Assembly (NCBI RefSeq): GCF_947493735.1
Contig: NZ_CANLSL010000007.1
Location: forward strand, 1,820-65,819
Length of the DNA stretch: 64,000 nucleotides
DNA from: an uncultured Acinetobacter sp.
GTDB lineage: Bacteria > Pseudomonadota > Gammaproteobacteria > Pseudomonadales > Moraxellaceae
Reading direction: 5' to 3'
Shown here: positions 3 through 51,077 of the stretch, one piece after another
How the letters are laid out: every line of letters starts with the position of its first letter
How positions within the stretch are numbered: the stretch's first letter is position 1
Made by a program: the position numbers and the translations under genes
The notes under the pieces: model-generated
The model's database searches: none
Seen by the model: the letters and a program-made list of their open reading frames with translations, nothing else
What the model was told of the DNA's origin: nothing

Positions 3-458
3 GTTGGTTGGCTTATGGGTGTTGAAGAAAAATGGTTAATTAACAAAGAATCAGAAGCTTGGCGGATGATCTATTGGTTGCAATTTTCCCATCCTGCTTC
101 TGATGAGTCGAGTGCCGCTTTGGGCGCAAGTTTGTCCAAAGAGCCGTTCTTTCGTGAATATCGCCACTTCCGCCCATTACAACAGAAGTTGGCATATCGA
201 CAACATTTGGAAATTACCCAATTTTTCATTGGTAAAAAACGTATGCAAAGCCTCGGTCTGCGTACTCGCCCTGCATCGTGGTTTGCCTATTATCTCATCA
301 TGCGCAATTTGATTTTATATACTGGCGCAAAGCGTAGTCCAAAACTCAATCAATATTTACAAAATCAAGGGCGCCGTATGCAGAAGATGGGGCTTTCACT
401 CTATCAAAGCCCTAACAATAAAAACCCAAGCAAACAACTGGCGAGCATGCATCAATAG
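3..458 (+). CDS. C-terminal fragment of an unidentified protein; the frame is open to the left window edge
   Basis: The reading frame is open from base 3 and stops at 456-458. I recognise no family motif. Confidence 0.4.
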   Translation, partial: VGWLMGVEEKWLINKESEAWRMIYWLQFSHPASDESSAALGASLSKEPFFREYRHFRPLQQKLAYRQHLEITQFFIGKKRMQSLGLRTRPASWFAYYLIMRNLILYTGAKRSPKLNQYLQNQGRRMQKMGLSLYQSPNNKNPSKQLASMHQ

Positions 459-4452: not shown

Positions 4453-4539
4453 GTCTAGTCAATATTTTGACCAATGATTGACTCCTTGGCGACAAAATAG
4501 CCAAGCAAAATTTTGAAATTCTGTTAATCTTTTAGCATT

Positions 4540-4668
4540 GCTTGACGGAGCGCGAGTAAGCACTCGCTGAGATCCGATAAAATCGTTTGCTGATTTTTTT
4601 CCATCAAACGATTTTGAGTCGGAGTACCGTTGAACCTGATCAGGTTAAGACCTGCGTAGGAATCAAGC
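4540..4668 (+). promoter_or_regulatory. TPP (THI-box) riboswitch in the thiC leader
   Basis: P1 arms are GCTTGA (4540-4545) and TCAAGC (4663-4668). The conserved 'CTGAGA' and 'ACCGTTGAACCTGATCAGGTTAAGACCTGCGTAGGAA' closely match the THI-element core seen upstream of thiC in E. coli. Confidence 0.85.
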
Positions 4669-4766
4669 CTGCTAATACACTGAAAATATACGATAAATTT
4701 CTTTATCATCATCTCATTTTCTATACCTGTTTTAGTTCTGCTTGATTCGTGATTGTTCTGCCATAG

Positions 4767-43680: not shown

Positions 43681-45156
43681 TTAAAACGGTTGCTTTGAAG
43701 GCACAGATGCCAATGCAGATTTGAGCAACTGCCAACACTTTTCAACGGTTTCAATATTTACCCTTTCTCCAGGTGCATGTGCGCCACGGATATCAGGACC
43801 AAAAGATACCATTTCTAGATGCGGATAATGCTCTGCAATGATGCCACACTCCAATCCTGCATGAATCACTTTACGTTTTGCTTCGATGCCAAATACATCT
43901 CGGTAGGCTTGTTGCAAGCAGGCTAAAGCTTTGGAACTTGGATTTGGTGTCCACCCTGAAACAAGTGGTGCTAAAGTCGCTTGAAGATTATGGTTGATAA
44001 AGTGCTGTTGAATTCGCTCCGCTAATGCGCCTGCATCAGAATTCACCAAAGAGCGCACCATAATAGATGCTTTAATTGCATTCTGATCTATAGACACCAC
44101 ACCGATATTATTCGAGGTTTCAACAATATCAGGAATAGTTTGGCTAAATTTGCTCACACCATATGGGCAATTGGCTAAAGCTTGGAGCCATTGATTCTGT
44201 TGTTTTTCTTCTAAAATGTATTGATGATTTTGCGTAGATTTCTGAATTTGGATATGCAAATCACCATCAATGTGTTGTAGTTTCTCTCGCCATTTGCATT
44301 CCGTATTGAATATAGCCTGTTGTAAGTTTTCAAATTGATTGATTGGAATCGCAATAGTTGCAGAGGCTTCTCTTGCAATGGCATTACGTGCTGTGCCGCC
44401 TTGCATAGAGATTAAATGACCGTCTAGATTGTGCAGGTATTCTGATAAAAATTTCGCCAAAATCACATTGGCATTACCACGACCTTCATGGATATCTAGC
44501 CCAGAATGTCCGCCTTTGAGTCCGAAGATTTGCAAATCATAAAATGCTAAATTTGGTGGTGCTTCGATAAGCTGAGCAGTTTGATTGACCTGAACATCCT
44601 GACTGCCCGCACAGCCTAAATACAATTCACCCCATTGTTCGGTATCAATATTGATCAGCCATTGGCCGTTTAAAATATTTGGCGATAAAAATCGTGCGCC
44701 ACTCATGCCTGCTTCTTCATCAACGGTGAGTAAAACCTCAATTGGTCCATGTGCAAAATCGTCTGACTCAAGCACAGCCAAAGACAGCGCGACACCAATG
44801 CCATTATCCGCACCTAAGGTGGTATGTTTTGCAATGAGCCAACCCTCTTCGATCACTGGTTGGATCGGATCGTGTAGGAAGTCATGCACTGTATCTCGAT
44901 TGACTTGTGTGACCATATCGAGATGACCTTGCAGAATGACAGGAATCGCATTTTCCATACCTTCGCTTGCAGGTTTTCGAATGACGAGATTACCGATGTC
45001 ATCGACTTCCGCTTCCAAGCCTCGTTGTATTGCCCACTGTTGAAGATAATCACGTATCATCTGCTCATGCTTTGATGGGCGTGGAATTGTGCATAAGGTT
45101 TGAAAGTGTCGCCAAACGATTTGTGGTGTAAGTAAGCCAATTTCAACAGTAGGCAT
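43681..45156 (-). CDS. pepD: Aminoacyl-histidine (Xaa-His) dipeptidase, M20 family
   Basis: 491 aa with 'LQGHLDMV', 'LGADNGIG' and 'TVDEEAGM' M20C motifs. Confidence 0.9.
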   Translation of the reverse strand: MPTVEIGLLTPQIVWRHFQTLCTIPRPSKHEQMIRDYLQQWAIQRGLEAEVDDIGNLVIRKPASEGMENAIPVILQGHLDMVTQVNRDTVHDFLHDPIQPVIEEGWLIAKHTTLGADNGIGVALSLAVLESDDFAHGPIEVLLTVDEEAGMSGARFLSPNILNGQWLINIDTEQWGELYLGCAGSQDVQVNQTAQLIEAPPNLAFYDLQIFGLKGGHSGLDIHEGRGNANVILAKFLSEYLHNLDGHLISMQGGTARNAIAREASATIAIPINQFENLQQAIFNTECKWREKLQHIDGDLHIQIQKSTQNHQYILEEKQQNQWLQALANCPYGVSKFSQTIPDIVETSNNIGVVSIDQNAIKASIMVRSLVNSDAGALAERIQQHFINHNLQATLAPLVSGWTPNPSSKALACLQQAYRDVFGIEAKRKVIHAGLECGIIAEHYPHLEMVSFGPDIRGAHAPGERVNIETVEKCWQLLKSALASVPSKQPF

Positions 45157-45232
45157 GATGGGTCATCTAAGAGTTTTGGTGTATGTATCATATGTCAAAT
45201 CGGCAATAGGTTATGCAACTATTTTTAAACTT

Positions 45233-45250
45233 TGTACGAAATGACGTACA
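45233..45250. promoter_or_regulatory. GacA/UvrY-box-like palindrome upstream of the candidate sRNA
   Basis: TGTACG-AAATGA-CGTACA is a perfect 6-N6-6 palindrome with the same architecture as TGTAAG-N6-CTTACA. Its centre is about 65 bp upstream of the inferred start, and a TATAAAAT -10-like element sits at 45293-45300. Confidence 0.4.
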
Positions 45251-45304
45251 ACTTTTGGCGTAGATGTAGGCTTTCTGTAAGTGGATAAAGTTTATAAAAT
45301 GATC

Positions 45305-45497
45305 ACATCATCAGACAGGATGTCTGTGATAAAAAAGCTTGCTGTGAAGCAACAGAGTAAATGGATTACTCATCAATAAGTGAAATAGAAACAGGACGTT
45401 TCTTGATAATAGTGCTGTGAAGCACCAAGCGAAAGGACATTCGCACTAATCACAAGCAACTCAAAAAAAGCCTTAAGGTTCGTCTTAAGGCTTTTTT
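45305..45497 (+). ncRNA. Candidate Rsm/Csr-family CsrA-sequestering small RNA (about 190 nt)
   Basis: Four hairpins expose GGA in their loops: 45312-45326 (AGGAU), 45355-45371 (AUGGA), 45387-45403 (AGGAC) and 45429-45444 (AGGACA). Two GUGA-tetraloop hairpins sit between them (45339-45352, 45412-45425). A rho-independent terminator ends the unit. Confidence 0.5.
45463..45497. terminator. Bidirectional intrinsic terminator (ends the sRNA candidate on the plus strand and aceF on the minus strand)
   Basis: AAAAAAA-GCCTTAAG-GTTCGT-CTTAAGGC-TTTTTT. Confidence 0.8.
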
Positions 45498-45541
45498 CTT
45501 ATCGGATGGAAAAACAGTTTAAGTTTTCTATGTTGGTCGAA

Positions 45542-47206
45542 TTACAACAATATTGAACGAATATCTTGCAATAACTTGGTCAATTTATGGGTAAATCTTG
45601 CGGCATCTGCACCATTAATCACACGATGATCATAAGACAGTGACAATGGTAGCATCAGCTTCGGTTGGAACTGCTGTCCATCCCAAACAGGTTGCATGGT
45701 CGCAGGTGAAATCCCGAGAATCGCAACTTGTGGCCAATTCACCAGTGGCGTAAATGCCGTACCACCGATACTCCCTAGACTGGTGATGGTGAAGTTAGCA
45801 CCTTGTAAGTCTTTCGGTGCGAGCTTCTTATCACGTGCTTTTTGGCTGAGTTCAGCCAGTTCTGTGGCAATTTGCGAAATTGATTTTCGATCAGGGTTAC
45901 GTAGTACAGGCACGGTCAAACCATTCTCTGTAGCGACTGCAATACCCATATGAATTTCATTGCGTATCAGCACCGATTTTTGATCATCCGCAAGATGACT
46001 GGCAAAATAAGGCTCTTGCTTGAGCAAATGCGCCACCGCTTTTGCGATAAAAGCCAAAATTGTTAGGCTTGTTCCACGATTCTTAAAGTCAGCTTTAAGC
46101 TCATTCCGCCATGCTTCCAGTGCAGTAATATCTGCAAGATCGAACTGTGTCACTTGCGGAATAAAGTTGTTTAAAGACAGCTGTGGTACGGATACTTGTT
46201 GCAAGCGAGTCATTGCTTTGACTTCAGCTCCACCATACGCATCAAAACTTGGTAGTTTTGGTAGACTAGAGGCTTGTGCTACACCATTAGTACCTACTGA
46301 CGATGTATTTAAACGACCTTTGACATAAGCATAAACATCTTCTTTCAAGATACGGTCATTTGAACCAGTAGCTTTGACTTGGCTGAGCACGACGCCGAGT
46401 TGACGCGCCATTTGACGTACCGCAGGTCCTGCATAGACTTTGGCATTGGCTTCGATTTCAGCATCAGTGAGTTTTGCTCTGCTGGTACCTTGTTCAGTAC
46501 TAGATGACGTTGTTGTTGCAGATTCAGCCTGTGGTTTTTCAGCGGAAGTCGTTTGCGCTTTTACTTCAGAGGGCTTTTGCGCTTCTGTTGTGGTCGCACT
46601 CTCGCAACTTTGTGCGCCCGCACCTGATGTTAATTTCAATGTCAACATCAATACGCCTTCTTTCACCATGTCGCCAGTTTTAACAGCGATAGAGAGCACT
46701 TCACCGCTGGCAGTACTTGGCACTTCGACAGTGGCTTTATCCGACTCCACCACGATAATGCTATCGTCTTCGGCAATGACATCGCCGACTTTGACCAACA
46801 CTTCGGCAACAGAGGCTTTCTCCACGCCAATATCAGGCACTTTTAGTTCGATTTCACGACTTTCAGATGGTGCTTGTGCTTGAGGTGCATCTTCTACTTT
46901 TGCATCGCCAGTTGATGGTGCTTCAGTTTCTGGTGTTGCTTCAGCTTTAGTTGCAGATTCTTCGCTTGCATCAGATGACTCTCCAGCTTCCAATTCGATC
47001 AATAGTGTGCCTTCTTTCACGGTATCACCGATATTGACCGAAATGGATTTTACCGTACCGCTGGCAGTGCTCGGTACTTCGACCGAGGCTTTGTCAGATT
47101 CTAAAACCAAAATGCTGTCATTTTCAGCAATTTGGTCACCGACTTTGACTAAAATCTCGGTGACTTGGGCTTGATCTACACCAATATCAGGAGTAATGAT
47201 TTGCAT
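45542..47206 (-). CDS. aceF: Pyruvate dehydrogenase E2 (dihydrolipoyllysine-residue acetyltransferase), two lipoyl domains
   Basis: Two 'ESDKA(S/T)VEVPS' lipoyl-attachment motifs, Ala/Pro/Thr linkers, and the catalytic 'SYDHRVINGADAARF'. Confidence 0.95.
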   Translation of the reverse strand: MQIITPDIGVDQAQVTEILVKVGDQIAENDSILVLESDKASVEVPSTASGTVKSISVNIGDTVKEGTLLIELEAGESSDASEESATKAEATPETEAPSTGDAKVEDAPQAQAPSESREIELKVPDIGVEKASVAEVLVKVGDVIAEDDSIIVVESDKATVEVPSTASGEVLSIAVKTGDMVKEGVLMLTLKLTSGAGAQSCESATTTEAQKPSEVKAQTTSAEKPQAESATTTSSSTEQGTSRAKLTDAEIEANAKVYAGPAVRQMARQLGVVLSQVKATGSNDRILKEDVYAYVKGRLNTSSVGTNGVAQASSLPKLPSFDAYGGAEVKAMTRLQQVSVPQLSLNNFIPQVTQFDLADITALEAWRNELKADFKNRGTSLTILAFIAKAVAHLLKQEPYFASHLADDQKSVLIRNEIHMGIAVATENGLTVPVLRNPDRKSISQIATELAELSQKARDKKLAPKDLQGANFTITSLGSIGGTAFTPLVNWPQVAILGISPATMQPVWDGQQFQPKLMLPLSLSYDHRVINGADAARFTHKLTKLLQDIRSILL

Positions 47207-49923: not shown

Positions 49924-50275
49924 TTTTCCACCTATCCTATTCTACGTGCCTGATTTATCTTTCCATAAATCATTGTGATTGTCCTTAGTTCTCAGACTAA
50001 ATGACGACGTACATAGCATATCGGCTTTATCGTATTACCATGTGGCAAAAGACGACGCTTAACAAATATTCACAGAAAGCGGTCAAAAGTTCGCAAAAGC
50101 CATGCAAAGTGCATCATGAAAAAGAATAATATTTTAGCGTATTATATTTTTAACGACGAATAAGGCATTGCACACATCTTTATCATTAATATTGAAGAAA
50201 AGCATAGTAAGGGCATGATTTTCTATAAATGTTTTGATAAAGATTAAAGGTTAGTTAATGGTTAAGTAGTATATA

Positions 50276-50334: not shown

Positions 50335-50979
50335 TTATGGCAATAATGCTAAGTATGTTGAAGGGTTTTGACGTTTATCGTTTTTAACCACTTCAAAGTG
50401 TAAATGTGGACCTGTACAACGACCTGTACAGCCAACATTAGCAATATGATCGCCAGCATTGACATAATCGCCAACTTTTGCGATTAGGCGTGATGCGTGC
50501 GCATAGCGTGTCTTATATCCGTTACTATGATCAACTTCAACATAATAGCCATAACCACTGCCCCAACCTGATTTAGTAACGACACCAGCACCACTTGCAT
50601 AAATTGCAGTACCAGTCGGTGCAGAAAAGTCGATGCCAGAATGTTGGCGTGTTGTACCCAACAAAGAACGCATACCATAGTTTGAGCTGACACGTGCATC
50701 AGGAACAGGATGAGCTGTCATCCAAGTCCCTGTTGAAGCGCTTGCATATTTGCTCAAAGAGGCGTTATTAAATTCAACCGATGTTTGAGACGCAGACGCC
50801 AAAGTTGCATTGCTAATGGTTTGTTCATCTTGTGAATAAGAACCTTTCCCGAGCGTACGAGAAAGTTGTTCTAAACGATCCATCGACTCGATGCTGTTTA
50901 AAGACTGATAGTCGGCAAAAGCGACAGACATTGCAGAACTAGCGAACGACAACGCAAGTAAAAAACGACGAATGTGCAT
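50335..50979 (-). CDS. M23-family metallopeptidase
   Basis: 'HSGIDFSAPTGTAIYA' and 'GCTGRCTGPHLHFEV' M23 zinc motifs, plus a signal peptide. Start set at the ATG at 50979. Confidence 0.85.
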   Translation of the reverse strand: MHIRRFLLALSFASSAMSVAFADYQSLNSIESMDRLEQLSRTLGKGSYSQDEQTISNATLASASQTSVEFNNASLSKYASASTGTWMTAHPVPDARVSSNYGMRSLLGTTRQHSGIDFSAPTGTAIYASGAGVVTKSGWGSGYGYYVEVDHSNGYKTRYAHASRLIAKVGDYVNAGDHIANVGCTGRCTGPHLHFEVVKNDKRQNPSTYLALLP

Positions 50980-51077
50980 AAATAAAAACCTCGAATTCCA
51001 GATCATCATGAAGAGGACTTGCGAATAAATTTTTCGGGACTAACATATAACGATCAATCATCGTAGATGATCAGTCT

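Follow-up and report, generated by a model that had tools for sequence, protein, structure and literature searches.

A conserved small RNA gene between pepD and aceF in Acinetobacter, with the features of a GacA-activated CsrA sponge

The spacer between pepD and aceF in the Acinetobacter DNA analysed here (64 kb in all, referred to below as the window) most probably contains a stand-alone gene for a CsrA sponge RNA of the Csr/Rsm type that is activated by GacA. The architecture of the element is conserved, its stems covary, its promoter geometry is fixed, and among related genomes it has moved as a unit.

The spacer (45157-45541) is 385 bp long and has pepD on one side and aceF on the other; aceE lies beyond aceF and purEK occupies the other flank of the locus. 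An earlier note on this DNA had described a compact module on the plus strand of the spacer, and all of its elements were found in their places. The features are as follows.

43681-45156, minus strand: pepD, aminoacyl-histidine dipeptidase (NCBIfam)
45233-45250, no strand: GacA/UvrY-type palindrome TGTACGAAATGACGTACA (TGTACG-N6-CGTACA), perfect, 18 bp
45293-45300, plus strand: -10 element TATAAAAT, with the predicted hexamer TAAAAT at 45295-45300
45305-45497, plus strand: predicted small RNA of about 193 nt, its start placed from the invariant ACATCA and its end from the U-run
45307-45330, plus strand: hairpin 1, outer AUCA/UGAU and inner CAGAC-AGGAU-GUCUG (45312-45326), GGA at 45318-45320
45340-45351, plus strand: hairpin 2, UGCU-GUGA-AGCA, a GNRA tetraloop without GGA
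45355-45371, plus strand: hairpin 3, GAGUAA-AUGGA-UUACUC, GGA at 45363-45365
45387-45403, plus strand: hairpin 4, AGAAAC-AGGAC-GUUUCU, GGA at 45394-45396
45412-45425, plus strand: hairpin 5, GUGCU-GUGA-AGCAC, a GNRA tetraloop and duplicate of hairpin 2 (z = -5.3)
45429-45444, plus strand: hairpin 6, GCGAA-AGGACA-UUCGC, GGA at 45435-45437 (z = -4.7)
45463-45497, both strands: two-way intrinsic terminator, made up of A7, GCCUUAAG, a loop, CUUAAGGC and U6, with a 14-bp hairpin
45542-47206, minus strand: aceF, pyruvate dehydrogenase E2 subunit (NCBIfam)

The four stem-loops that had been drawn with GGA in the loop were present both in the minimum-energy fold and when each was folded singly, so that all four GGA motifs (three AGGA/ARGGA and one UGGA, in AUGGA) are exposed in predicted hairpin loops, 31-45 nt apart. 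The two GUGA-tetraloop hairpins reported between them were also recovered, and folding of 45305-45500 (196 nt) returned every named hairpin with a z-score of -5.6. An internal duplication, which the earlier note had put at about 75 nt, was seen as two halves of about 70 nt that align to each other; the duplicated unit consists of a GGA hairpin, a GNRA hairpin, a second GGA hairpin and then a single-stranded, AUCA-rich tail. To see how often such hairpins cluster, GGA-loop hairpins were counted in 160-nt windows over both strands of the 64 kb. Of 3194 windows, 3039 contained none, 145 contained one, eight contained two and two contained three, and both of the latter fell at this locus on the plus strand.

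The predicted RNA ends in a rho-independent terminator as strong as had been claimed, whose 14-bp hairpin (-16.9 kcal/mol) runs into U6. Read on the minus strand the same hairpin has an energy of -21.7 kcal/mol and lies 45 nt past the aceF stop codon, and it is predicted to close the small RNA in one direction and aceF in the other. A simple terminator scanner reported no terminator at the locus, probably because the A-tract and the U-tract pair and so hide the T-run.

The only match above the Rfam gathering threshold in the window was a TPP riboswitch on the plus strand at 4536-4679 (60.7 bits), which is separate from the locus. The AceF protein encoded beside the RNA has 554 aa, with two biotin/lipoyl-type stretches (NCBIfam, Pfam), and is 657-682 aa long in A. 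baylyi, A. variabilis, A. indicus and other mainstream Acinetobacter, which suggests that one lipoyl domain is missing from AceF of the window clade.

The window derives from an Acinetobacter near A. sedimenti and A. marinus. Homologues were collected with the flanking genes. A scan with pepD, limited to one genome per species, returned six loci, with pepD identities of 97% for A. sedimenti, 96% and 92% for two metagenome-assembled genomes (MAGs), 83% for A. marinus and about 64% for A. puyangensis and A. populi; an exact look-up with the pepD product of the window found no identical protein record. Relatives of aceF and of an epimerase gene gave additional metagenomic and genomic contigs, and the final set comprised ten distinct versions of the element from five Acinetobacter lineages. 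All four GGA triplets were invariant in all ten sequences. A covariance model built from the set scored all the homologues at 124-187 bits, and a search with it over the window and 21 loci (337 kb) revealed no second copy or paralogue. When public metagenomes were scanned for CAGGANGTTTC-N(5-18)-TGCTGNGAAGCA, nine matches were obtained, of which two were real and both of these duplicated a Red Sea MAG already in the set. As this exact-motif scan found the present clade only, homologues in mainstream Acinetobacter, if there are any, must differ in those motifs. No match was obtained by blastn against plasmids.

The earlier note had asked whether the GGA loops and their stems are kept in related genomes. 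They are, in the ten homologues, and with compensatory changes in the stems. The named structure comprises seven helices and 47 pairs; when counted on a nine-sequence alignment, 96.9% of the pair cells were paired, and sliding the 3' partners by 1-3 columns reduced this value to 40-47%. Six pairs had changes on both sides that preserved pairing, and the resulting covariation score was reached by none of 500 shuffles. Two of these pairs lie in hairpin 1 (C-G to G-C and A-U to G-C) and two in the terminator stem, where the changes are in A. populi and A. puyangensis, so that the terminator is itself conserved with compensation. The stem of hairpin 2 was invariant in all ten sequences, hairpin 5 was conserved in all of them, and the stem of hairpin 4 was fully paired throughout, with A-U replaced by G-U in two. 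In A. marinus the stem of hairpin 6 is rearranged and its GGA is still exposed. Most stem pairs do not vary at all, so the evidence of covariation comes from a small number of events in what are effectively five lineages.

Hairpin 3 showed a different kind of change. The window clade has the stem GAGUAA/UUACUC, A. marinus has GAG/CUC, A. populi and A. puyangensis have GUGAA/UUCAC, and locus L032 has GCGA/UCGC. All four form local hairpins that place GGA in the loop, and as the replacement stems pair in another register, the change escapes the alignment. RNAalifold recovered hairpins 1, 2, 4, 5 and 6 independently and offered for hairpin 3 a different solution, in which GAUUA pairs at long range with UAAUC (45446-45450). 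In a comparison of the six closest sequences, variation was seen in 14 of the 64 columns in linkers and in three of the 129 in hairpins (Fisher p = 1.9e-5), which is the pattern that would be expected of selection acting on the hairpins.

Two further details of the RNA body were noted. The GNRA hairpins (UGCU-GNGA-AGCA, 45340-45351 and 45412-45425) are nearly identical to each other and their stems are invariant in the ten homologues, and the N of the GNGA loop is U in both copies in the window clade, A. marinus and L032, and A in both copies in A. populi and A. puyangensis. The A. puyangensis homologue (locus L005, around 165-195, minus strand) carries a 30-nt insertion, GCUUGUUGAUAAGCUUUAUUGAUAAUAAAG, between hairpins 1 and 2, which folds into an extra hairpin resembling a degenerate third copy of the GNRA hairpin.

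The palindrome upstream of the RNA has the 6-N6-6 layout of the GacA/UvrY box, as the earlier note had proposed, and most relatives carry the canonical TGTAAG-N6-CTTACA at the equivalent position. The exact palindrome occurs once in the 64-kb window, where about 0.004 occurrences would be expected by chance (12 fixed bases; our own arithmetic), and the box pattern, when sought in other Acinetobacter loci (about 150 kb), was found only upstream of homologues of the small RNA. The palindrome is predicted to be an upstream activating site of the GacA/UvrY type, positioned at about -74 to -57. The -10-like element that had been placed about 45 bp downstream was seen at a distance of exactly 44 nt, and a TAnnnT hexamer lies exactly 44 nt past the box in all five lineages, the intervening sequence having diverged. 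In each lineage the hexamer is followed after 4 nt by the invariant (A/C)CATCA that opens the conserved RNA block, and the distance from box to RNA start is 54 nt in all the homologues. The -35 element is poor, consisting of a conserved T-rich patch, and probably because of this weakness a consensus promoter scan found no full sigma-70 promoter at the locus. A weak -35 fits an activator-dependent promoter. Elsewhere in the window, a second palindrome, TGTACAACGACCTGTACA (TGTACA-N6-TGTACA), was seen at 50413-50430, about 490 nt upstream of the aceE start codon and inside or beside a 224-aa minus-strand ORF (50335-51009); it matches the box pattern with two mismatches, which is within chance expectation.

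Small RNAs that antagonise CsrA have been recognised by a set of criteria comprising an intergenic location, richness in A(R)GGA, an intrinsic terminator, GGA in loops and a conserved UvrY/GacA-type upstream site, the last being a hallmark of Csr/Rsm sponge genes (Kulkarni et al., 2006). The element lies within the pepD-aceF spacer, exposes its GGA motifs in loops, ends in an intrinsic terminator and is preceded by an 18-bp box that is kept in relatives at a fixed distance from the RNA start, so the comparison with Rsm and Csr sponges drawn in the earlier note holds for site, terminator, loops and location. Its closest counterparts in function and architecture are RsmX, RsmY and RsmZ of Pseudomonas and RsmY and RsmZ of Legionella. 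These RNAs, which are about 110-190 nt long, also carry GGA in the loops of short hairpins and end in an intrinsic terminator, and their genes have an 18-bp palindrome of the TGTAAG-N6-CTTACA type before a promoter with a weak -35. The present RNA differs from them in that its four GGA motifs alternate with two invariant GNRA hairpins, in its clear two-unit tandem duplication and in having no match to the Rfam Rsm models. CsrB and CsrC of Enterobacteria and Vibrio share with it the proposed action, titration of CsrA by GGA loops, and the class of activator, UvrY/GacA, which binds a similar palindrome; the RNA did not match their Rfam models, and CsrB and CsrC are longer, at about 245-420 nt, with 9-22 GGA sites.

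A search with the Rfam models for RsmX, RsmY, PrrB_RsmZ, CsrB and CsrC had been suggested as a check, and here the outcome went against expectation. None matched, either at the gathering threshold over the whole window or at E <=10 with the spacer and two divergent homologues, and at permissive thresholds the window locus and two homologues gave terminator-like noise only. Also counting against a sponge are the low density of GGA motifs, the one such motif (AUGGA) that falls outside AGGA/ARGGA, the departure of the window box from consensus in both half-sites, and the lack of a homologue at the pepD or aceF loci searched in A. calcoaceticus, A. junii, A. baylyi and A. terrae. Sponge RNAs have been proposed within the genus: rsmX, rsmY and rsmZ were predicted in A. 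baylyi ADP1 (Kulkarni et al., 2006), and CsrB, CsrC and CsrD are given as CsrA sponges of A. baumannii AB5075 (Singh et al., 2025, as cited in PMC13516227 and PMC13643297). They share with the present RNA the genus, the proposed function and the GacSA-CsrA context; if related to it, they have diverged. ADP1 rsmZ lies between two genes in a left-right-left orientation, as does this locus, which we regard as a lead only.

On the reading that we prefer, a phosphorylated response regulator of the GacS/GacA (BarA/UvrY) type would bind the palindrome, and bound GacA would activate a sigma-70 promoter with a good -10 and a poor -35. The product would be the plus-strand RNA of about 193 nt, presenting its four GGA triplets in the loops of short hairpins. 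The 31-45 nt between them is within the range that one CsrA dimer can bridge; a dimer bridging two GGA sites would give about two dimers per RNA, and CsrA held off its mRNA targets in this way would no longer repress their translation. Transcription, the exact 5' end, dependence on GacA, and the binding and stoichiometry of CsrA are all predicted from sequence. According to the literature gacA, gacS and csrA are present in the genus Acinetobacter, and genetics links GacS/GacA with CsrA in A. baylyi and A. baumannii. The 64-kb window contains no csrA-like ORF and gacA also lies outside it, so the presence of both genes in this genome is assumed from the genus.

The leader of aceE within the window also drew attention. 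The 75 nt before the aceE start codon (49924-50000, minus strand) contain four GGA motifs, one in a hairpin loop (AUUUAU-GGAAAG-AUAAAU) and one overlapping the Shine-Dalgarno region, and a segment of the leader, AAGGACAAUCACAA, is similar to AAGGACAUUCGCACUAAUCACAA of the small RNA. The aceE leader could be a CsrA target site; its fold has a z-score of -1.3, which is not significant.

The arrangement of the hairpins allows the main proposal to be extended. To our knowledge no role has been described for GNRA hairpins in Csr/Rsm sponges, and here, strictly conserved, they are interleaved one-to-one with GGA hairpins in the duplicated unit. The RNA might be a composite regulator rather than a plain sponge. 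It would then belong to a distinct Rsm-like family of basal Acinetobacter, non-homologous to the curated Rsm/Csr families, with the GNRA hairpins as a second functional module. We consider this rather unlikely; were it so, the GNRA module might recruit a turnover factor or a second RNA-binding protein, or might fix the geometry of the CsrA sites through a tertiary contact.

A conserved small RNA need not sequester CsrA at all. It might act by base-pairing, with Hfq or another chaperone, through its single-stranded ACUAAUCACAA segments or its GNRA hairpins, the GGA loops then being incidental or secondary. The low density of GGA, four in 193 nt, would agree with this, the density in CsrB, RsmY and RsmZ being higher, as would the lack of a match to the Rfam Csr/Rsm models and the presence of an invariant pair of GNRA hairpins and of two (A)AUCA(C)AA segments that are single-stranded and conserved, none of which has a known part in a Csr sponge. 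Against a pairing RNA stand the four GGA triplets, which are invariant and always looped, even where the stems around them have been replaced, and the GacA-type box typical of Csr/Rsm sponge genes; the locus also holds the sole cluster of GGA-loop hairpins in the window. We regard this explanation as improbable.

The next question is whether there is a separate gene here at all, or only the minus-strand 3' UTR and terminator of aceF together with the promoter and leader of pepD, in which case the hairpins would function as terminators, attenuators or REP-like elements and pepD would have the palindrome as its operator. The minus strand folds at least as well as the plus strand (z = -6.6), so fold energy alone cannot decide between the strands; moreover the terminator is bidirectional and sits just past aceF, and the palindrome lies 77 nt upstream of the pepD start codon. 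The remaining sequence features fit the plus strand only. Seven of the pair cells hold G-U on the plus strand, where the minus strand would have A-C mismatches, and the loops contain GGA and GNRA in the plus-strand sequence as opposed to UCC and UNNC in that of the minus strand. It is on these loops and G-U cells, together with the -10 element and a box-to-(-10) spacing that is fixed relative to the plus-strand start, that the plus strand was assigned.

The genomic surroundings of the homologues bear on the same question. Within the window clade its neighbours are aceF and pepD, whereas in A. populi, A. puyangensis and L032 it adjoins an argA-linked epimerase gene. The A. populi copy is flanked by this NAD-dependent epimerase gene, which converges on it, and by an MFS transporter gene, which diverges from it, and pepD comes one gene later. 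Between the A. puyangensis copy and pepD there are two phosphorylase genes and a gene for a Tsx channel, and the epimerase gene is on the same contig; the L032 copy follows the epimerase gene, which is paired with argA. In these three, then, the module has no adjoining aceF, and pepD is separated from it by other genes or is absent from the locus. The conserved unit nevertheless runs from box to terminator in every lineage, and since it stays constant while its neighbours change, it should have no cis-acting role tied to pepD or aceF. Judged by this comparison, the module is apparently a self-contained gene and not a control region of either, and we consider a purely minus-strand origin very improbable. 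A dispersed repeat of the REP type is at odds with the single copy in the 337 kb searched, and a coding explanation was rejected, since no ORF in the RNA region exceeds 32 aa, as the earlier note had also implied, and indels among the homologues, which are not multiples of three, break the reading frame.

Homologues were sought at the corresponding positions in other species. There was none beside pepD in A. calcoaceticus, A. junii and Acinetobacter sp. Z1, none beside aceF in A. baylyi and A. terrae, and none beside the epimerase gene in A. marinus and two unclassified Acinetobacter. The spacer downstream of aceF in A. baylyi and A. terrae precedes a GDT1-family gene, and it contains (locus L021 11987-12324 in A. 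baylyi, L025 12008-12409 in A. terrae) a conserved structured leader of this GDT1/TerC-like membrane protein gene, which may be a manganese riboswitch and is not Csr-like. A. marinus belongs to the clade of the window, and at its epimerase locus (L030 4860-5066) GC-rich REP-like palindromes, for example CCCCTCTTTGAAAAGAGGGG and CTCCCTCCTTTGAAAAAGGAGGG, were found where other lineages carry the RNA, as would be expected if the RNA gene had moved to the aceF-pepD spacer in this clade.

The one feature in which the window departs from most of its relatives is the box. TGTAAG-N6-CTTACA is present in A. sedimenti, A. marinus, A. puyangensis and the MAGs; the left half-site alone is changed in the nearest relative (TGTACG..CTTACA) and the right half-site alone in A. 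populi and L032 (TGTAAG..CGTACA), and in the window both half-sites are off consensus, symmetrically (TGTACG/CGTACA). This might indicate that the RNA gene is real and is decaying or otherwise regulated in the window strain, with GacA control possibly lost. Against this, position 5 also varies in the relatives just named, where the RNA body is intact, and the RNA body of the window has no disabling change. Since the position varies in the left, the right or both halves across relatives, it appears to be tolerant, and enterobacterial UvrY sites also vary at positions 4-5. Decay of the gene or loss of its control seems to us very improbable. As an observation in its own right, the window and its relatives (L026, L001-L006 and L032) constitute a natural allelic series at position 5 of a GacA-type half-site.

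The earlier note had proposed that the locus, if real, is an unannotated global post-transcriptional regulator. Its conservation and its lack of a match among the Rfam models are clear; that its predicted RNA acts as a CsrA sponge is well supported by comparison and not proven. The regulator is of a known kind, present here as a copy invisible to Rfam in a little-studied Acinetobacter clade, and represents no new kind of system. The GacSA-Csr cascade governs carbon metabolism, desiccation tolerance, aromatic catabolism and virulence switching in Acinetobacter, and RNA antagonists are the least catalogued part of it. Annotation pipelines based on Rfam would miss this RNA, and the alignment and covariance model obtained here can be used to search other genomes for it. 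The box variants at position 5 are a useful natural allelic series, and the architecture of four sites in two units would make the RNA a convenient minimal model for the bridging of sites by the CsrA dimer.
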